Below, one piece after another: positions 53,808 through 63,226 of a stretch of DNA of 64,000 nt (position 1 is the stretch's first letter; each line of letters begins with the position of its first letter). Source of the DNA: a virus. The stretch covers positions 114,049-178,048 of IMG/VR virus record IMGVR_UViG_3300048672_000512; one strand, written 5' to 3'. The notes beneath the pieces are model-generated. The model was not told the origin of the DNA. It made no database searches and saw only the letters and a program-made list of their open reading frames with translations. A program made the translations under genes and the position numbers.

Positions 53808-56800
53808 ATGGCAACAAAGAAACTGAAAGATTACGACGCAAGTGCAATTCAGCATCTTGACTACGTTGATTCTGTGCGCAAGAAGCCGCAAATGTACATC
53901 GGACCTACCGATGGGGCCGGCATCTTCACGATTCTGCGTGAGGTCATGGACAACGCACGCGATGAATCGCTAGCTGGTTTCTGCTCTTCAGTTGAAACGT
54001 ACATCGATGACGATGGGTCTTACTGGGTTCTGGACGACGGGCGCGGAATGCCAGTGCAGCCGAAGAAGATCAAAGATCCTGTTTCTGGTAGTGAGCATTC
54101 CATGCCGGCTATTCAGGCCATTACTTCTCTTCTTCATGCAGGTGGAAAGTTTTCAAAGGAAGGTTCCTACAACAACACGGTTGGTTGCTTTACTGGAGAT
54201 ACAAGAATTCGACTGCTGGATGGTCGCGTTCTTTCTATGGAGGAACTGCATGCACATTGGACAAAGACAGGAAAGAACCTTCCAGTTCTTTCTTACAGCA
54301 CGCGCAAGCAGCGACTTGAGCCGTCTGAGATTTCGTTTTCACAACTGACCAAGAAAACGCGAGACTTGGTTGAAGTAACACTGGATAACGGCAACACGCT
54401 TCGCTGTACACCAGAGCATCCGTTTTACGTAAGGAGAGGTGGCTCCATAAAGCGAGTGCAAGCGCAGTATCTGCGGTTTGAAGACTCTCTAGTTACCACC
54501 TATTACTACAGCGATCGGCACGCTAGGGCTAACGATACTGAACACGGACCTCACGACTACTACAGTGTAACTGACAACGGCGTAGGTAAACCACTGCATC
54601 GACTTGTAGGCTCCTTTGATACAGAGAAGCGTGTGTTTGATGATCTGCGCGGACAGTCGATTGACATTCATCATAAGAACAAAAAAGTTCAGGATAACCG
54701 CCAGGATAACCTTGAACGCTTGTTCATGTCGGACCACCATCGTGAGCATGCAGAAGACCGGTCCGCGTTAGCCAGAGACAAGATTCTTGAAACTCAGGCT
54801 GACCTTAGAGCAGAAAACTCTAGTCGGTTTACGCGTCAGAACACACAAGAATGGCATAAGATTCAGTCGGGTCAGAAAAAAGCTCTAAAGATAGCGGCCC
54901 GAGCAATAGAAACCTACGGCGTATTCAACGCAGTCACTTACAGCGAATCTCGTAGAGGAACTGACGCAAAGTATTCAGTTGCAGTTTCCTACTTTGAATC
55001 GGAAGCAGATTTCGCTAAGGAAGCTAATAAGTTCTATAAAGACCTTGTCCAGAGAGTTGGCCGATCCTACCTTGCAGAGGACACTCTGTCTGGGTCTAAC
55101 GCTTCGCAAAAGACGCTGCAAGAAGTTGCAAAGGAAAAGAGCGACCTTGCTAGGTTTGACCTGTGGAAAAAGAAGCTTCTGAGCTTCAAGAACCCAAACA
55201 CCGTTACGCCTCAAGAGTGGAACGCACGTCGCTCTAGCGACTATAAGATGGGAACATCTGCCTATGCTTTACTTGCTAGTGTTACGACACTAGCTGCTCT
55301 GAAGCGCCATGTTCTGAATGGTGAAGCTCTGGTATGCTATGAGGACATGTCAGAAGAAGCAGTGACAATGCGCCGAGCAATTGCGGAGTATCGGGTTGCT
55401 ACTGAGCAGAAGCGCTACAGTTTTCTGAACTACAGCATTAGGCGACTCAGGTCTTCTCTTGGCGAGCGTTCTTACAGTACTGACCTGCATAGAAGCCTTC
55501 TTCGCAAGAGCCGCAACCTTCCTGACGAGATGATGTTCAAGATGTTTGCTTCCAAGCATCTGGGCCTTGAATTTGAAGACTGTACTGATGACGAAATTGA
55601 CACATTGATTCAATCATGGAACCATACTGTACTTGGCGTCAGAAAGTTGAAGCTACAGAATGCGGTTCCAGTGTATGACATAACTGTTGACCACACGCAC
55701 ACCTTCTTTGTTGAAGCTGGTGTTGGTGTTCATAAACCAAAGAACGGGAAACCTGACATTGACTGCTTCGCTTCAGGTGTTTTGGTTTCGAATAGCCACG
55801 GAGTTGGCATCAAGGCGACAAACTTTCTAAGTGAGTACTTTGAAGTCTACACTTTCAACGCTGGAGCATGGTGGTTTCTTGACTATGAATTTGGTCGCCT
55901 GTCAACTCCACTGAAGAAGGTCAAGGCACCGCTCAAGCCTGGAAGCAATTCAACGCTCAAGAAAGGTACGCTTGTACACTTCAAGCCAGACCTGTCGATT
56001 TTTAGCGAACCTGTGTTTCCGTCGATTCTTCTTACCGACTGGTCGCGCATTGCTTCGTACTTCACCCCAGGTTTCAAGATCACTCTTTCGCATCACTCTG
56101 GAAAGGTGCGAGAGTTTCAAGCTGACGGCCCTGCTCAGTATGTGGTGGACCGTCTAGCAAAGCTGCAAGCTACGCCATTGATTGACGTTGAACCCTTCAA
56201 CTTTGAATCTGGTTTGGTGTCTTGCGTGCTGCAGTTCACCGGTCACGATGGTTGTGACTTTGCACCATTCACCAATGGTCTGTACAACGCTGAAAAGGGT
56301 GTTCACTTCAATGCTTTCTTTCAAGCACTGATTGCAGCGTTGCAGCCTTTTGTGAAACGCAAGCAGGAGTTTTCAGCAACTGAACTTCGAGAAGGCATAG
56401 TTGGCCTGCTTAACGTCAAGCTTGAGGCTCCAAAGTTCTCAAGTCAGACCAAGGAAAAGCTGGTTGACGATCGTGCTGCTGAACCAGTCAAGGAATTGAT
56501 TCTTGAAGCCCTGACAGCATTCTTCAAGAAGAACAGGGCTCTAGCTGAAGCTGTGTGCGAACGCGCAGCAAAGCTCAAGGAACTGCGCAATCAGTTCACT
56601 GCTAGCAAGGCCGTGCTATCTACGCTTCGCAAGATTGCAAAGAAGGGGCTGCCCCTGAAAGCATGCACTGCCTACGACTGCAAACCTGAGGATAGAGAAC
56701 TGTATCTTGTTGAAGGGGACTCCGCAGCTGGCTGTTTTCTTGGTGACACAAAGGTTCGACTTATAAATGGTGTTTCGATGTCGTTTGAAGAAATGGTGCG

Positions 56801-57701
56801 TCAAAGCGAAGCTGGTAAGAAGCTGTACGGTTACGCCTACAACTTGAAAGAGTCTTGCACAGAAGTTATTGAATTTGACACACCGAGAATAACGAAGCAC
56901 GTAACTTCGTACGTTGAAGTAGAACTTTCAAACGGGGAAATTCTGCGTTGCACAGAGAATCATCCGTTCTTGTTGCGGTCAGGGGTCTATAAGGCAGCAG
57001 AGAAACTGGAACCTGGCGACTCGTTGATGACGCACGCAGAAGAGATACATGCAAAAGTAAGCGGTTTTAGCTCCGGAATAAAGCGCAGAGTAGCTATAGC
57101 ACCTGGAAAGAAGAATGGTGTTGGCACTATGGTGTATAAGAAAGCTGTTCTTCTTAACCGGAAAGAACGTCGCAAGCTAGCTACTGGAATGCACATACAT
57201 CATAAGGATAACGACAGCTTGAACGACGATCCAAGCAACCTTGAAGTATTGACGCAAGAAGACCATGTAAGAGAGCACTCAAATTCACCGGGTGCAGTTG
57301 TAGCTAGAGCTAACTTCGGTAAGTTGCATGCGGAAAGAATGAAGACAGACTTCTCTTATAAAGAAAAGTCTATTAAGAATACAACAGAAGTATTTCAGGA
57401 ATACTGGAGCGACGCATCCAACCGGAAACTGCAATCAAAAGCAGTAACCTACTACTTTAAGAATCTAGAAAATAGAAAGAAAACGGCAGAGGCTACTCGC
57501 ATAGGCATGCGCAAGTTGTGGCTCAGCATAGCTAGTCACGCTGTAGCAATCAAACTGGATCCTTTTACCGATGCCGGATTCGACGCGGCAAAGCAAAGAC
57601 TTGATTGCAAAACACCGATGAAGGCAAAGTCCTGGCAGAAGTTCTTTGATACAAAGAGCGCTGCTGTGAAGAGCGTAAAATCCTGGAAGGAAGTCAAATG
57701 A
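53808..57701 (+). CDS. gyrB: Type IIA topoisomerase B subunit, N-fragment (ATPase, transducer, intein 1, split intein N-half)
   Basis: VRKKPQMYIG, LREVMDNARDE, DDGRGMP, HAGGKF, HGVG, SQTKEKL, LYLVEGDSAAG. Confidence 0.93.
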   Translation: MATKKLKDYDASAIQHLDYVDSVRKKPQMYIGPTDGAGIFTILREVMDNARDESLAGFCSSVETYIDDDGSYWVLDDGRGMPVQPKKIKDPVSGSEHSMPAIQAITSLLHAGGKFSKEGSYNNTVGCFTGDTRIRLLDGRVLSMEELHAHWTKTGKNLPVLSYSTRKQRLEPSEISFSQLTKKTRDLVEVTLDNGNTLRCTPEHPFYVRRGGSIKRVQAQYLRFEDSLVTTYYYSDRHARANDTEHGPHDYYSVTDNGVGKPLHRLVGSFDTEKRVFDDLRGQSIDIHHKNKKVQDNRQDNLERLFMSDHHREHAEDRSALARDKILETQADLRAENSSRFTRQNTQEWHKIQSGQKKALKIAARAIETYGVFNAVTYSESRRGTDAKYSVAVSYFESEADFAKEANKFYKDLVQRVGRSYLAEDTLSGSNASQKTLQEVAKEKSDLARFDLWKKKLLSFKNPNTVTPQEWNARRSSDYKMGTSAYALLASVTTLAALKRHVLNGEALVCYEDMSEEAVTMRRAIAEYRVATEQKRYSFLNYSIRRLRSSLGERSYSTDLHRSLLRKSRNLPDEMMFKMFASKHLGLEFEDCTDDEIDTLIQSWNHTVLGVRKLKLQNAVPVYDITVDHTHTFFVEAGVGVHKPKNGKPDIDCFASGVLVSNSHGVGIKATNFLSEYFEVYTFNAGAWWFLDYEFGRLSTPLKKVKAPLKPGSNSTLKKGTLVHFKPDLSIFSEPVFPSILLTDWSRIASYFTPGFKITLSHHSGKVREFQADGPAQYVVDRLAKLQATPLIDVEPFNFESGLVSCVLQFTGHDGCDFAPFTNGLYNAEKGVHFNAFFQALIAALQPFVKRKQEFSATELREGIVGLLNVKLEAPKFSSQTKEKLVDDRAAEPVKELILEALTAFFKKNRALAEAVCERAAKLKELRNQFTASKAVLSTLRKIAKKGLPLKACTAYDCKPEDRELYLVEGDSAAGCFLGDTKVRLINGVSMSFEEMVRQSEAGKKLYGYAYNLKESCTEVIEFDTPRITKHVTSYVEVELSNGEILRCTENHPFLLRSGVYKAAEKLEPGDSLMTHAEEIHAKVSGFSSGIKRRVAIAPGKKNGVGTMVYKKAVLLNRKERRKLATGMHIHHKDNDSLNDDPSNLEVLTQEDHVREHSNSPGAVVARANFGKLHAERMKTDFSYKEKSIKNTTEVFQEYWSDASNRKLQSKAVTYYFKNLENRKKTAEATRIGMRKLWLSIASHAVAIKLDPFTDAGFDAAKQRLDCKTPMKAKSWQKFFDTKSAAVKSVKSWKEVK
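54186..55793 (+). mobile_element. Intein 1 (class 1, 536 aa, HNH) in the GyrB ATP lid
   Basis: NNTVG|CFTGDT...CTPEHPF...HHKNK..DN..NL...VYDITV...VLVSN|SHGVG. Confidence 0.92.
56733..57698 (+). mobile_element. Split intein, N-half (322 aa, carries HNH)
   Basis: EGDSAAG|CFLGDT...CTENHPF...AEKLEPGD...HHKDNDSLND.PSNL; ORF stops without blocks F/G. Confidence 0.88.
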
Positions 57702-57931
57702 AAAAGTCGTCGTGTGAAAAGCTCACACTGTCTAAGGAAGACAGGCTGCGCCTTAAGAATTCAAAGGCTACAGGGAAGAGAACTAGGCGTTCTTTGCATC
57801 AGGGTGTTGTTACTAATACTATTACAGTAAAGTCTGTGAGGAAGGTCACATGCGATCCTATTCCAGTTTATGACGCTACGGTTCCGAAGTACCACAACTA
57901 TGCATTAGACGCTGGCATCTTTGTTCACAAC
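57698..57931 (+). mobile_element. Split intein, C-half (78 aa, strongly basic)
   Basis: M...VYDATVPKYHNYALDAGIFVHN|TAK; AAGGAAG RBS and ATGA overlap. Confidence 0.88.
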
Positions 57932-59872
57932 ACGGCAAAAGGCGCTAGAGACAAGCGATATCAAGAACTGCTTCCATTGCGAGGCAAGTTCCTGAACGCA
58001 TACAAAGCACCGATAGAAAAGCTTCTTGCGTCAGAAGAGGTTCTGAACATCCTTGCAACAATGGGTTTCGATCCTAAGGCAGAAGATCCTTACAAGAGTC
58101 TGCGAGTGAATCGACTGATCGCATTGGCTGATGCCGATGTTGACGGACCCTTGGGCCGTCATACTCCTGTAAAGCTTTGCGATGGAACCACCAAGACAAT
58201 GGAGCAATTAGCTTCCATGTGGGAGGAGGCTCCAGACGCACCTATTTGGGTATGGGGTGTTAACAAAAAACGCGAGCTAGTACCAGCTAGGGCTTACATG
58301 CCATCAGTGACAACTACCAGTAGTAGTTATATGAAAATCACTTTTGATGATGGCTCTGTAATAAGGTGTACAAACGGGCATGCGTGGCCGGTTAATAATC
58401 TGGAACGTAGCCGCACTAAAAAGACACATAAAGGGTTCAATTACTGTCTTGCAAAGAATCTGGTAGTTGGTGACTCGATACCCGACGTAACTTTCACCTT
58501 TAAGAATCACGACAACTACGATGGGTACAAGTCTTATATAGCACCTGATGGTAGCTACCGTCTTCTGCATAGAACCGTAATGCAAAACGTGAAATCAAAA
58601 CAGTATGCAAAGTACGCTGCAGCAAACACTGGTGTACACGGTGGCGCGATACACGTCCACCATAAAGACGAAAACAAGCTCAACAATTCACCCGAGAATC
58701 TAGAGTTTTTATCTCGCTATGAGCACTCCAGGTTGCATATTTCTGCATACGCAAAGGAGTACAACGGATCTGAGCGGCATATACAAGACTTGAATCGGTT
58801 CTGGGAAAACAACCCACAGGCTCGCGTCAAGGCTGCAGACAGAATCACGGCGTATAACAAGTCAGAAGCGCATCGTAAAGTTGTTTCTAGTATGAATGCT
58901 GACCCTGAAGTTAAGAGGAAGCAGGCCTTGGGGTCGCTGGCGCGGTTTTTTTTGGGACTTAAGGATGCAGGTGTTTCATTCAGTAAGCATGCAGGGTATC
59001 GGTTTGTCACTGGTAACTCGTATCGCGGAGCTGAACCCTCAATGAGCAAGTTTGATATCTCCATAGCGGATGTGACTGCGTTTATCAAAGAGCGGGGACT
59101 GAAACTTTCTGACGGGTACAAAGTACTACCTGTTTCTCAGACCGCAGGTAAACCCTATGCTAAGACTAAGCCTTCGCAGGAGGCCGCTCTTAAGAAGTTC
59201 CTCATACACTGCAAAAGAACAAGTTTGAAGTATGGCGTCCTCAATGAGGAGAAATATGAAGAGTACAGGATCGGAAGGTTTAGTAGATACCCGCGCTGGA
59301 ACTTAGGAAAAGATATTTTCAAGCAGGAGTATGGTTCTTTTTCAACGAGTCTACTGAAGAAAAAATTCCAGGCTGTCAATCACACAGTTGTTGCTGTAGA
59401 GCAAGTCACAAGTAAGACACCCCGAGACTTCTACTGCATGGCGGTTCCAGATACAGGAAACTTTCTGATAGAGGACAAAGATGGAAATGGGATTGTTACA
59501 GGTAACTGCCATATTAACATCCTGATTCTTTCACTGCTTCAAAAGCTGCTTCCGGACTTGTTTGCGCAGAAGCGTGTTTACTATGTAAAAGCGCCGGAGT
59601 ACTATGCAACCACAAAGTCCGGAGCGGTGTACGGATATACTAAGGAAGAAGTTCAAGCGCAGCTTGTTGCGCTCAAGGCTACGTCTGCTCAGATAAGCCA
59701 CATCAAGGGGTGGGGTGAAATCAATGCCGACATGTTGAAAGAACTAGCATTCAATCCTGAAACGCGCCGACTGGTTCTGATTGACTCTGACATGAGTGGA
59801 ACTGAAGAAGAGGCACTGTCTTTTCTGATGTCCAAGGACGTTTCTGCACGCAAGCAACTTCTGGGGATATAA
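57698..59872 (+). CDS. gyrB: Type IIA topoisomerase B subunit, C-fragment (split intein C-half, TOPRIM, class 3 intein)
   Basis: TAKGARD, LPLRGKFLN, DADVDG..CHI, HIKGWGEIN, TRRL. Confidence 0.92.
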   Translation: MKKSSCEKLTLSKEDRLRLKNSKATGKRTRRSLHQGVVTNTITVKSVRKVTCDPIPVYDATVPKYHNYALDAGIFVHNTAKGARDKRYQELLPLRGKFLNAYKAPIEKLLASEEVLNILATMGFDPKAEDPYKSLRVNRLIALADADVDGPLGRHTPVKLCDGTTKTMEQLASMWEEAPDAPIWVWGVNKKRELVPARAYMPSVTTTSSSYMKITFDDGSVIRCTNGHAWPVNNLERSRTKKTHKGFNYCLAKNLVVGDSIPDVTFTFKNHDNYDGYKSYIAPDGSYRLLHRTVMQNVKSKQYAKYAAANTGVHGGAIHVHHKDENKLNNSPENLEFLSRYEHSRLHISAYAKEYNGSERHIQDLNRFWENNPQARVKAADRITAYNKSEAHRKVVSSMNADPEVKRKQALGSLARFFLGLKDAGVSFSKHAGYRFVTGNSYRGAEPSMSKFDISIADVTAFIKERGLKLSDGYKVLPVSQTAGKPYAKTKPSQEAALKKFLIHCKRTSLKYGVLNEEKYEEYRIGRFSRYPRWNLGKDIFKQEYGSFSTSLLKKKFQAVNHTVVAVEQVTSKTPRDFYCMAVPDTGNFLIEDKDGNGIVTGNCHINILILSLLQKLLPDLFAQKRVYYVKAPEYYATTKSGAVYGYTKEEVQAQLVALKATSAQISHIKGWGEINADMLKELAFNPETRRLVLIDSDMSGTEEEALSFLMSKDVSARKQLLGI
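58148..59506 (+). mobile_element. Class 3 intein (Pro1, WCT triplet, 453 aa, HNH) in the TOPRIM DxDxDG motif
   Basis: DADVDG|PLGRHTPV; block B CTNGHAW; block F FYCMAV; block G IVTGN|CHI. Confidence 0.9.
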
Positions 59873-60415
59873 GTGGAAAACCAAAATCTTTTCAGTATGG
59901 ATTGTCTGACAGCATTCTATCAAACAACTCTGCAGTTGATAGAAACGCAGAACGCACTACGCCAGTCTTCGGGCTTTAAGCAAGTGTCAGGGCTCTTCAA
60001 TGCAGACCTGATTCCAAACGAATTGCATTACGTGGAGTATGAATGTAGAAACAAGACTCTGCGCTCAAGGCGAGCTACGCCGGTTCAGACATACGGTGTC
60101 ATAAACGATGTTGTGACTCTGACAATAGAAGCACCTGACGCTGCACTGCGTCTGACGCTATCTGCAAATTCAGTGCTGAATGTTGTCACTCTTGGAAATG
60201 GCCCGACAGACTACGGAGTACCAAAGCAAAAGAGTATTAGAGCTGCAAAGCTTCGAGCCGGAGACATGCTGCCAACTGTCAATCCAAACATTAATGCAAA
60301 AATTGTGAAGGTGGAACACAAGAAAGAAGACACGCAAGTGTTTGCTTTTCCTCTTGATCTTAACAACGTGGTCAGCTACTACGGCGGTGTCATTATAAAC
60401 AGTGGATTCGACTAA
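59873..60415 (+). CDS. Stand-alone degenerate Hint (intein-like) domain protein
   Basis: DCLT..; LRLTLSANSVLNV (block B without His); IRAAKLRAGDML; KIVKVE...VFAF...GGVIINS. Confidence 0.6.
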   Translation: MENQNLFSMDCLTAFYQTTLQLIETQNALRQSSGFKQVSGLFNADLIPNELHYVEYECRNKTLRSRRATPVQTYGVINDVVTLTIEAPDAALRLTLSANSVLNVVTLGNGPTDYGVPKQKSIRAAKLRAGDMLPTVNPNINAKIVKVEHKKEDTQVFAFPLDLNNVVSYYGGVIINSGFD

Positions 60416-63226
60416 ATGGCGACACGAAGAAAGCAAGCTGTAAACGCTGCTGACGTAGCACCTATTGCCACGCAGCAGTTGATACCTAGCGTAAAGACCT
60501 GGTTAACTCAGTACGGACAAGAAGTTAACGAAGAGCGCTCCATTCCAGACTTTAGAGACGGTCTGAAGCCTGTGCATCGTCGTTCTCTGTGGGCAATGCA
60601 GCAAGTTGTCACTTCTCAGAATAGGCTTATCAAGTCTGCTCGCGTAGTTGGCAATACTATTGGTCAGCTGCATCCGCACGGAGACACTGCGTGTCTCCGA
60701 GGAAACACACTGGTACCATTGCTTAGCGGAACCAATGTAACTATAAAGGAACTAGCTGACAAGAAGTCCGGACCTAAGTGGGTTCTTTCTTACGATGAAG
60801 AAACAAAGTCACTGGTACCGGCACTAGCGCATTCTTGGCGCAAGGCAAAGGTTACTAGGAAGATGTTGCGTATTCACCTGACGTCAGGTGAAGTTATTGA
60901 AGTTACACCTGAACATAAGCTGATAAGTAGCGACCGAGGTTGGCAAGAAGCAAAAGACCTATCAATTGGAGACACCCTAATTGGTGGGGCGCTGATAGAC
61001 ACGGACGGCTACAAAGAAGTGACTCTCAATACCAAGTTCCGTAAAAAGGTGCACATGCTAGTTGGTGACGCCAAGTACGGAGGCAGAGAGGATGACGAGG
61101 TATATCATCATATCGATGAAAATACGCAAAACAATCGCCCTTCTAATCTGCAACTACTTTCAAGAGCAGAGCACGCAATAGCGCATGAAGATAACTACTT
61201 AGACGGGTTGAGCCTAGGTAGAAAACGCATGTTTGCTGAAGACTCATCACTGCGTACTGCAATCCGAAAAAAGAATAGCACTCTCACTAAGGAGGTTAGT
61301 GCGCACCATGGCATACTGATAGCTCTTAAGGCTATTCGCACCCTGCAAGCTAGTAACATTGAGGTAACAGAGGATAATTACGAAAAGCTGCGCCCATGCG
61401 TCTATAATCTTACAAGGCTAGAGACGCTGTATAAAAAAGGTCATAGCTTCGACGAACTATGCTCTCTTGCAAAGGACTTCAAGCTTGACACTAATAAGGC
61501 TAAAGGTTTCACCTCAAAAATAAAAAAAGCACGGAAAGGCACTAGAGTACAAGTGCCTTCTAAGAGCAAGGATCCAAATGGTTTACTGTACGCTAGGCTT
61601 GGTAGCGTGCTGGGAAAACTTCTTGCTATTCACGGAAGTCTGAACTCTGTTGACTGGGATACTTATACAGCGTATGTTAGACGTGAGCCTAGCATGAGCG
61701 CAAACTTTAATAGAGTAGCTTACTCAAAACCGGAAAGGCTTAAGTCGCTTTTTAGTATCAATACAGTTGCAGAGTTAGCTGCTAAGATACCGACATGGTG
61801 TCTAAATGCCGTGGCTAGATTGGAGTATGTTACTCTAGAAGCTAAAGAGACATTCTACGACTTTACCGTTGACAACTATGAAAACATGATTGTGTTTTCA
61901 TCAAACGGTCAAAAGTCTGGAAACTTCTTAGTGGTTCACAACTGCTATAACGCCATAGTTACACTCACTACCTCGTTTGCACCCGTTATTCAAGGTGAAG
62001 GTAACTGGGGTACGCAGATAGACAGCGCAGCCGCCTACCGATATACAAACTGCAACCTCACTGAGCTTGGAAAGCTAAACTTTCACCATTACTTTCTTCC
62101 GTGCGCAGATCTGATTCCTAACTTTGACGGTTCTTCAAAGGAACCGTTAGTGCTTCCTGCTCTGCTACCGCAGTTGCTTTTCAACGGAAGCTCAGGTATC
62201 GGTGTTGGTGTGACAACGTCTATTCCAAGCTTTGAGCCAGCATCCGTTTTGAAAATAATGATTCGACTGCTCAACGGCGAGTCATTATCAACAGAGGACT
62301 ACGCAAAGGGTCTGAAGTTTCAAGAAGTGTATGGTGGTCAACCTATCAAGTCGAAAGAGAATGCAGAAGCGATTCGTGCTTTCTTTGAGGGTCACAAAGG
62401 CTACGTTGACTGGAACAGCGAAATAGAGATAGACAGGGACAGCAAGACAGTGACCATCCTTGCATTCGCGCCAGGTATCTCGCCGCTGAACTTTCTTGAA
62501 AACAAAGTAAAGCCCAGAGACGAAGTGCAGAATGTGTCAGCAGGCGACGTTGGAATGTCATTTGTTATTCGCTGCAAGAAAACGCTGAACTACAATGACT
62601 TTGACAAGTTCGTTCTCTTTCTCAAGAAAGGACTGACCTGCAGAAATCACTACGAAGTGTACGTGACGGAACGTCTTCTAGACGAAGGGTCCGGCGACAA
62701 CTATCACGTCAACTTCTTTGCTATCTCTATACCGAACTTGATAGTTCGTTGGTTGAAGTGGCGATGCAAGCTGGAAGCGCGCTCGCTAGACTTCCGAATC
62801 GAGAAAACGCAAAGTCAGATCGCGTTCACTGAACTGATGATCCTAGCTTGCGACAACCTGCAGATCATCATGGATGCTTTGCGACGCGAAGACACTGCAG
62901 ACTACATTGCAAAGAAGTTGAAGATCAGCATTGAACAGGCAAACGTGATCCTTGATCGAAAGGTTCGCAACCTGTCAAAGCTTGACAACAGCAAGTTGAG
63001 GCTCAGAGTCAAAGAGTTGAAGTCTCTGTTAGCTAGCCTGAAGACGAAGCGCAAGAAGCCCTCGATTGAAGTCAAAGCTTTCCTAGAGTCAACGATTGAC
63101 CGGTTCAAACTTGCCGAAAAGTGGATCGGTACTAGACAGTACAGGCTGCAAGCCGGAACTGCTAACGTCGTGTACACGGACCCCTTACTAGATAGTCAAC
63201 CGTCAGACTTAGAGGCAGCACCCTGA
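60416..63226 (+). CDS. gyrA: Type IIA topoisomerase A subunit (519 aa mature, no beta-pinwheel CTD) with intein
   Basis: IPDFRDGLKPVHRR, KSARVVG, HPHGD, GEGNWG, AAAYRYT (catalytic Tyr), PNFDG, LLFNGSSGIGVG. Confidence 0.93.
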   Translation: MATRRKQAVNAADVAPIATQQLIPSVKTWLTQYGQEVNEERSIPDFRDGLKPVHRRSLWAMQQVVTSQNRLIKSARVVGNTIGQLHPHGDTACLRGNTLVPLLSGTNVTIKELADKKSGPKWVLSYDEETKSLVPALAHSWRKAKVTRKMLRIHLTSGEVIEVTPEHKLISSDRGWQEAKDLSIGDTLIGGALIDTDGYKEVTLNTKFRKKVHMLVGDAKYGGREDDEVYHHIDENTQNNRPSNLQLLSRAEHAIAHEDNYLDGLSLGRKRMFAEDSSLRTAIRKKNSTLTKEVSAHHGILIALKAIRTLQASNIEVTEDNYEKLRPCVYNLTRLETLYKKGHSFDELCSLAKDFKLDTNKAKGFTSKIKKARKGTRVQVPSKSKDPNGLLYARLGSVLGKLLAIHGSLNSVDWDTYTAYVRREPSMSANFNRVAYSKPERLKSLFSINTVAELAAKIPTWCLNAVARLEYVTLEAKETFYDFTVDNYENMIVFSSNGQKSGNFLVVHNCYNAIVTLTTSFAPVIQGEGNWGTQIDSAAAYRYTNCNLTELGKLNFHHYFLPCADLIPNFDGSSKEPLVLPALLPQLLFNGSSGIGVGVTTSIPSFEPASVLKIMIRLLNGESLSTEDYAKGLKFQEVYGGQPIKSKENAEAIRAFFEGHKGYVDWNSEIEIDRDSKTVTILAFAPGISPLNFLENKVKPRDEVQNVSAGDVGMSFVIRCKKTLNYNDFDKFVLFLKKGLTCRNHYEVYVTERLLDEGSGDNYHVNFFAISIPNLIVRWLKWRCKLEARSLDFRIEKTQSQIAFTELMILACDNLQIIMDALRREDTADYIAKKLKISIEQANVILDRKVRNLSKLDNSKLRLRVKELKSLLASLKTKRKKPSIEVKAFLESTIDRFKLAEKWIGTRQYRLQAGTANVVYTDPLLDSQPSDLEAAP
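60692..61942 (+). mobile_element. Intein 4 (class 1, 417 aa, HNH) in GyrA helix alpha4
   Basis: HPHGDTA|CLRGNT...VTPEHKL...HHIDEN..NNRPSNL...FYDFTV...VVHN|CYN. Confidence 0.92.

Follow-up and report, generated by a model that had tools for sequence, protein, structure and literature searches.

The gyrB and gyrA genes of a jumbo phage from a freshwater metagenome are separated by a single small gene that, in our preferred reading, encodes a free-standing Hint-fold protein. It would descend from a mini-intein ancestor, would have lost the ability to splice and is found without a surrounding host protein or an endonuclease. We regard this reading as fairly probable; a former genetic parasite would then probably be at work as a non-enzymatic phage protein. 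The gene, P0001 (59873-60415, plus strand), encodes 180 aa from a GTG start to a TAA stop. It lies in the last 64 kb of a 178-kb IMG/VR record judged 75% complete by CheckV, and this stretch of 64,000 nucleotides is what we call the window. GyrA of the window phage is 30-40% identical to that of jumbo phages, e.g. BcepSaruman and phiRSL1.

The upstream neighbour of P0001 is the C-terminal piece of gyrB (57698-59872, plus strand), which comprises the IntC of a split intein, a class-3-like HNH intein and the GyrB C-terminus (..RKQLLGI). Downstream lies gyrA (60416-63226, plus strand), which carries an HNH intein at 60692-61942. The 180-aa ORF had been described as abutting both neighbours, and the sequence indeed reads TAA/GTG at the end of gyrB and TAA/ATG at the start of gyrA, so that the ORF fills the gap exactly. 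Its translation in the ORF list, its synteny in two related freshwater phages (contigs L004 and L008) and the constraint on its coding sequence argue that it is a real gene with a translated and constrained frame. The public gene call, P0005, comprises 172 aa and begins at Met9. The GTG start nevertheless appears to be the better one, because L004 has an ATG at the same place, followed by N-x-N-L-F, and because a Shine-Dalgarno-like GGGGA run lies 7 nt upstream. The end of gyrB (59862-59872, plus strand; GGGGATATAA) contains this GGGGA and the TAA that abuts the GTG. Its letters are identical in L004, which shares ..CTTxTGGGGATATAA directly before its own ORF start. Translational coupling between the gyrB stop and the GTG start is probable. 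Scanning for promoters and terminators near the ORF junctions returned nothing above shuffle expectation. With a G+C content of 45%, the ORF resembles the inteins (44-46%) more than the exteins (47-50%).

Because GyrB of relatives ends at the same ..LLGI, P0001 is an insertion that leaves the GyrB end intact and not a severed GyrB tail. For the same reason, we rejected the idea that its leader and trailer represent such a tail. In all carriers of the P0001 family the three frames are continuous except for single TAA codons, which raises the possibility of a recoded polyprotein in which both TAA codons are read through and GyrB-C, Hint and GyrA form one chain. Abutting genes necessarily share a frame, and the shared frame of the three ORFs therefore adds no weight. 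Moreover, both junctions retain their TAA codon, the second lineage described below has spacers and a TGA stop instead, GyrB of relatives lacking the ORF ends where it does here, and a dead Hint would be unable to excise itself from the chain. We consider the polyprotein almost certainly wrong.

The assignment to the Hint fold does not come from standard domain models. Pfam, PHROGs, NCBIfam and PADLOC models gave no match for P0001 or for its homologue P0007 from L004. The Pfam families Intein_splicing (PF14890), Hint (PF01079) and PT-HINT (PF07591) did not match P0001, its core or P0007 at E values up to 10. A genome-wide scan with PF14890 matched 12 intein pieces, P0001 not being among them, and a PDB sequence search with the family profile found no match at E up to 10. 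BLASTP of P0001 against the neighbouring inteins gave E values of 0.1 or higher, and we discarded the idea that it is a recent derivative of them.

Four other lines of evidence point to a Hint origin. ESM Atlas feature matches for P0001 include PT-HINT and Intein_splicing clusters (0.90-0.92), and ten of ten structure rows are Hint-bearing, with TM scores by query of 0.56-0.61, mostly over residues 39-180; the underlying model has a pTM of 0.59 and a pLDDT of 0.59. For profile comparison, the nine inteins of the phage were trimmed to their splicing parts, aligned and compared with the family profile by hhalign. The family aligned to this template in the expected register with P 8.8e-5, a score of 32 and a probability of 60%, whereas P was 0.054 with the template reversed and 0.23-0.89 with twenty column-shuffled versions of it, the control scores being 8-17. 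The strand order that had been read by eye from the sequence is thus borne out. AF2 models of P0001 reached a pLDDT of 31 from the single sequence and of 48 from a two-sequence alignment. With residues 68-180 of the latter model, Foldseek returned only inteins, Hedgehog and BIL structures (E 0.04-0.5, probability up to 0.97). VIA-align, which is independent of Foldseek, was run against 48,161 chains and likewise matched model residues 68/70-180 to inteins, Hedgehog and BIL structures only, aligning 88-98 residues at an rmsd of 3.2-4.0 Å with Z about 5-6.9, values below 8 being in the range that the tool calls common. Other structure rows matched only the N-terminal helices, which the AF2 model draws at low confidence. 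Finally, a joint alignment with the nine inteins shows the full Hint block order. None of these four lines is strong alone, yet taken together they make a Hint origin of P0001 very likely. Because the structure models are of low confidence, they support membership in the Hint (Hedgehog/intein) fold superfamily with moderate strength; the beta part returned only Hint structures in Foldseek, VIA-align and the ESM Atlas, as expected from the original prediction.

The joint alignment allows the protein to be divided into recognizable parts. A block A relic, L6-F-S-M-D-C-L12 (59888-59908, plus strand), carries Leu at intein position 1. The motif L-F-x-x-[DS]-[CF]-L is common to the three known members of the family, with L-F at positions 1-2 (L6-F7) throughout. 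Thus the position 1 nucleophile is missing: the residue is Leu in the window (L6), in L004 and, as read from contig letters, in the third phage, X3. A 'CL' near the N-terminus had been listed among the Hint features, which does not hold, since C11-L12 aligns with block A position 6 and reads F-L in both relatives, position 1 being L6. Residues 13-72 (59909-60088, plus strand) form a variable N-terminal segment that is shortened in X3 (L008) and almost absent in L004. Within it, hhalign aligns residues 54-72 to the intein N2 hairpin, and AF2 puts helices in the segment at low confidence. The conserved core, residues 73-180 (60089-60412, plus strand), corresponds to the Hint fold from about intein residue 35-50 to the end. 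It is 57-59% identical among the three members and has 48 invariant positions.

Within the core, the residues needed for splicing are replaced. At block B, S97-A-N-S100 (60161-60172, plus strand), placed by the hhalign register and the joint alignment and invariant in all three members, stands in for T-x-x-H. The block B His is the most conserved intein residue, and its absence had been correctly noted. The same is true of the block F Asp: profile and joint alignments place V156-F-A-F159 (60338-60349, plus strand) where inteins have V-Y-D-x, and the family reads V-F-A/S-F, with Ala or Ser in the position of the Asp. The block F His position is taken by N165 in the joint alignment (60365-60367, plus strand). 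The block G relic, G-G-V-I-I-N-S-G-F-D, together with the TAA that abuts the gyrA ATG, occupies 60383-60415 (plus strand), and G-G-V-[IV]-I-N-[SC]-G-F-D is kept at the C-terminus of all three members. The MAFFT register and the reading by eye differ by one residue here: N176 is the terminal Asn, followed by Ser/Cys at +1, in one of them and takes the penultimate position in the other. Both registers lack the penultimate His; the joint alignment has Ile there. The C-terminus had been reported as lacking the terminal His-Asn pair, which is too simple, since an Asn followed by Ser or Cys is kept in three of three. The W-C-T triplet of class 3 inteins (block B Trp, block F Cys, block G Thr) is found in none of the three members at the aligned positions, and the phage's own class-3-like intein gyrB_i3 shows it in the same alignment. 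In all three members, other residues stand in place of the nucleophile, of Thr and His in block B, of Asp and His in block F and of the penultimate His, so that P0001 is predicted to be unable to splice or cleave by any known intein route, be it class 1, 2 or 3.

Exteins and an endonuclease insert are also missing, as the original prediction had stated and the alignments confirm: nothing flanks the Hint part except a leader of 5 aa and a trailer of 3-4 aa, and GyrB and GyrA keep their normal C-terminal LLGI and N-terminal Met, respectively. These micro-exteins do not mark an intein site elsewhere, as the genome has no N-L-F..[SCT]-G-F-D site. A three-piece split intein was likewise ruled out, since the GyrB and GyrA ends bear no intein tags and blocks A and G are both present within the ORF itself. 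On the same grounds, P0001 does not look like a fragment of a split intein with an atypically long IntC: it has a block A relic of its own, and neither the GyrB C-terminus nor the GyrA N-terminus carries an intein tag.

P0001 shares with class 1 mini-inteins (Mtu RecA 2IMZ, Npu DnaE 4KL5, VidaL 6VGV, Cat 6DSL) the succession of blocks (A, N2 hairpin, B, 'A-x-K-L-x-x-G-D', F, G), the fold of residues about 70-180 and the size. Unlike these, it lacks a host protein, has Leu at position 1, Ser where the block B His would be and Ala or Ser where the block F Asp would be, and is without the penultimate His; Pfam Intein_splicing does not score it. Non-classical Hint folds, namely BIL domains (e.g. 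2LWY) and the PT-HINT domains of polymorphic toxins, are among its structure and feature matches; these sit inside larger proteins and retain cleavage residues, whereas P0001 stands alone and retains none.

The family is small. An exhaustive phmmer search of 1.84 billion representatives turned up neither longer nor fused forms and just one homologue, P0007 (123 aa, E 7e-22). It is encoded on the 989-bp contig L004, which reads ..QLLGI-stop-M-K-N-R-N-L-F..V-V-I-N-C-G-F-D-stop-M-A-T-R-R-K-Q... A third carrier, a phage in run X3, was seen when contigs of three public runs were placed on the locus. Its contig (L008) was retrieved via the GyrA P0008, which is 85% identical, and has an ORF of about 155 aa between gyrB and gyrA. 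The contig holds this ORF from the eleventh codon on, and the ORF ends G-G-V-V-I-N-C-G-F-D, stop and ATG. The members, of 180, about 155 and 123 aa, have the first twelve and the last 108 residues in common. Searches for P0001 and P0067 (see below) by tblastn in 50,697 phage records and by viral and metagenome contig scans gave no match or relative, a viral contig scan with the L004 GyrA fragment gave no match and a word-indexed protein search returned only the query itself.

Most relatives do not have the ORF. In L009, L010, L011, L012, L014, L016 and L017, whose GyrA is 40-51% identical to that of the window phage, as well as in BcepSaruman, BCSR5 and RHph_I42, gyrB adjoins gyrA with nothing in between. 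The ORF-less L009, L011 and L014 have a GyrB of 834-843 aa (L009:3446-5977, L011:1491-4004, L014:1496-4000), about 200 aa longer than the intein-free form of L017 (634 aa). The longer proteins show at most a faint intein match and may hold undetected mini-inteins or an extension. Two cultured jumbo phages have unrelated ORFs in the same gap, phiRSL1 ORF334 (L002:4373-4726, 117 aa) and Peetri_00197 (L007:3444-3659, 71 aa), and the gap seems to tolerate or attract small inserts. ORF334 was considered as a homologue and dismissed as BLASTP gave no match; a 210-aa ORF upstream of gyrA in L015 was dismissed as a Hint for having no Hint motifs.

A second dead Hint ORF occupies the gyrB-gyrA junction in another phage lineage. 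P0067 (L013:3453-3989) and its near-twin P0069 (L019:1302-1838) are each 178 aa long and lie between gyrB and gyrA; GyrA of L013 is 48% identical to that of the window phage. The ESM Atlas model of P0067, a confident one, is a complete Hint (pTM 0.80, TM 0.72-0.79 over residues 1-178), and hhalign aligns P0067 to the inteins of the window phage with P 4e-5. P0067 also lacks a nucleophile: it has Gly/Leu at position 1, S-G-G-C at block B and Asn for the block F Asp, and it ends ..I-T-N. It thus resembles P0001 in junction, size, the missing nucleophile and a Ser at the block B Thr position, and the leaders are similar (..E-N-H-G-L-F-G-D in P0067, E-N-Q-N-L-F-S-M-D in P0001). Unlike P0001, it ends exactly at ..I-T-N without a trailer and is flanked by short spacers (1 nt and 11 nt in L013, with a TGA stop) and not by abutting stops. 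Sequence kinship between P0067 and P0001 beyond the fold was not detected (hhalign P 0.08; BLOSUM sum about 0), and the two may go back to common descent or to independent capture. In either case, predicted dead Hints recur at the gyrB-gyrA junction. In L019, the gyrA frame stays open for at least 602 aa up to the contig end, and an intein absent from L013 probably lies within it.

Is P0001 a working gene or a decaying relic? Read as a relic, it would be a mini-intein copy in the gyrB-gyrA gap that is kept open for ribosomes to read through to gyrA and is constrained only for solubility. The large N-terminal deletions (from 180 aa to about 155 and 123 aa) and a dN that exceeds the gyrA value fourfold do resemble decay more than a fixed subunit and speak against our preferred explanation, and the loss of all catalytic residues, the patchy distribution and the conservation of the ORF ends at the DNA level fit a relic as well. 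[quoted passage not shown] Set against this is the pattern of substitutions. In the core (residues 73-180) of the three known members, dN is 0.31-0.35 and dS 1.1-2.8, which gives an omega of 0.13-0.28, a rough value because dS is saturated. Changes at third codon positions are about twice as frequent as those at first or second positions. In 2000 neutral simulations at equal nucleotide divergence, amino acid identity was at most 0.45, compared with 0.59 observed, and stops arose in 95%. The core of the P0001 family is therefore under purifying selection. P0067 and P0069 differ at 51 nt with five conservative residue changes (dN 0.012, dS 0.49), and their omega of 0.025 is comparable to that of the adjacent gyrB (0.011) and is the kind of constraint expected of an essential gene. 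The original prediction had named dN/dS among homologues as a check, and both lineages pass it. Such constraint, in P0001 maintained over dS > 1, lies far above what staying open and soluble would demand. Many of the invariant residues are charged and of surface type (K118, K120, R123, K126, R128, K146, E148, D153), and phage genomes usually purge useless DNA over such divergence. We therefore consider a mere relic quite unlikely. Arth_1007 and P0001 are alike as intein-derived ORFs with minimal exteins and no block B His; P0001 differs in being syntenic across phages, in being under purifying selection and in that a second lineage has a comparable gene at this junction.

The core is constrained, and at the same time the ORF diverges faster than its surroundings, its protein-level divergence being about four times that of gyrA (gyrA dN about 0.1). 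L004 and L008 are about 96% identical in gyrA (dS 0.12) and about 65% in the ORF (dS 1.1), and identity switches sharply in the block G relic, about 33 nt upstream of the ORF stop. Between the window and X3, identity is 92% from 58121 to the end of the seventh ORF codon and stays below 80% from there to 60302. Allele exchange, diversifying selection or co-conversion around the two flanking HNH inteins may account for this divergence hot spot. To judge from its variable N-terminal third and its mosaic pattern, the cassette is exchanged or remodelled much faster than its flanks.

A hot spot of this kind, with its sharp boundary, would also suit an unrelated moron, that is a Hint scaffold reused for host takeover, anti-defence or phage competition whose position, in a well-expressed operon and at a spot tolerant of insertions, is incidental. 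The unrelated small ORFs in the same gap of phiRSL1 and Peetri would fit, as would a family that is tiny and fast-evolving. Two different dead Hints at the same junction are hard to credit to chance, however, if the site were unrelated to Hint or topoisomerase biology; in the P0067 lineage the ORF has not diverged beyond its flank, PADLOC models do not match and the mosaicism could itself be co-conversion around the two flanking inteins. A moron is, in our estimate, unlikely but still a rival to be taken seriously.

The original prediction offered a pseudo-intein acting in trans as chaperone, decoy or inhibitor of split-intein association, or else a domesticated relic. A domesticated pseudo-intein is the part that the dead Hint fold and the purifying selection support. 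The link to the split GyrB intein fares worse. A real split intein does lie in the same operon, about 1.9 kb upstream of P0001, and the best matches of the P0001 core are long C-fragments from inteins that are split atypically (Cat 6DSL chain B and VidaL 6VGV, Z 6.5-6.9), two top matches that may reflect target length alone. In the carrier L013, gyrB is a single, unsplit gene of 877 aa. In the carrier X3, a contig joint, from which contiguity is inferred, leaves out 873 nt including the HNH domain and the split point, so that its gyrB is probably unsplit too. With its own block A relic, P0001 would moreover be a complete Hint that offers no free half-site for IntN or IntC. A role of P0001 in IntN-IntC association is thus disfavoured, and we think it very unlikely.

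This leaves a domesticated, splicing-dead Hint protein as the reading we prefer, for which we propose the following mechanism. P0001 would be co-produced with the topoisomerase subunits in about equal amounts via stop-start translational coupling and would act without catalysis, as a binding module; non-catalytic binding is its most likely function. Tentatively, it may bind to the topoisomerase II subunits of the phage or to those precursors of them that still carry inteins, a guess that derives from two unrelated-looking dead Hints at exactly this junction in two phage lineages. A bolder version, which we hold to be unlikely, makes dead Hints a recurrent and dedicated third component of the intein-laden phage topoisomerase II, recruited to the gyrB-gyrA junction on at least one occasion and perhaps on two. 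They would serve as an assembly or quality-control factor that recognises GyrB and GyrA termini or unspliced precursors via the former splice-site cleft. If this were true, an intein would have turned from a parasite into a trans-acting partner of the enzyme that it formerly infested.

Inteins are usually viewed as pure parasites. Clear cases of intein domestication are few to our knowledge, the HO endonuclease being the textbook one. Yeast HO is presented as a domesticated degenerate intein in a preprint (bioRxiv 10.1101/2020.01.20.913210). It is like P0001 in being intein-derived, no longer splicing and kept for a function; it differs in that its endonuclease is that function, whereas P0001 has no nuclease domain. 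Inactive inteins with minimal exteins are already on record as pseudogenes (Arth_1007, PMC3196547). New here are the location at a topoisomerase gene junction, the signs of selection and the existence of a second lineage. P0001 and P0067 would provide a tractable model of the Hint fold without its chemistry and would show how intein-rich phages cope with their load. As the proteins are small and the flanking enzymes well understood, their function is directly approachable.

The intein load of this phage is considerable. Nine inteins or more lie in its genome, of which gyrB has three, ribonucleotide reductase two and gyrA one; there is also one each in an SNF2-type helicase (G000:C1:33765-39902, in the numbering of the whole record), the large terminase (G000:C1:101386-105090, minus strand) and the portal (G000:C1:94218-97688, minus strand). 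Of the gyrB inteins, one is complete, one is split at the Toprim EGDSAG/C and one begins with Pro. The split intein spans 56733-57931; its IntN and HNH domain end ORF 53808-57701, and its 78-aa IntC opens ORF 57698-59872, the two ORFs overlapping by ATGA. The X3 contig joins 56995 to 57869, the 873 nt with the HNH domain and the split point being those missing there. As judged from this joint, X3 probably has a contiguous mini-intein at the Toprim site, and the split in the window phage looks derived.

Intein content varies among very close phages. The gyrA HNH intein at 60692-61942 is absent from L004, L008 and X3, and in an X3 contig a stretch of 94 other letters connects 60642 to 61988. The Pro-initial HNH intein (58148-59506) and its right flank, on to 59893, are 92% identical between the window and X3, compared with 80-84% for the exteins. 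The pattern resembles that of a recent lateral transfer whose co-conversion tract reaches as far as codon 7 of the Hint ORF. Outside the window, both ribonucleotide reductase inteins lie in ORF G000:C1:25613-30121, and the second of them (residues 699-944) ends ..L-V-T-G-Q/C, with a C-terminal Gln instead of Asn.
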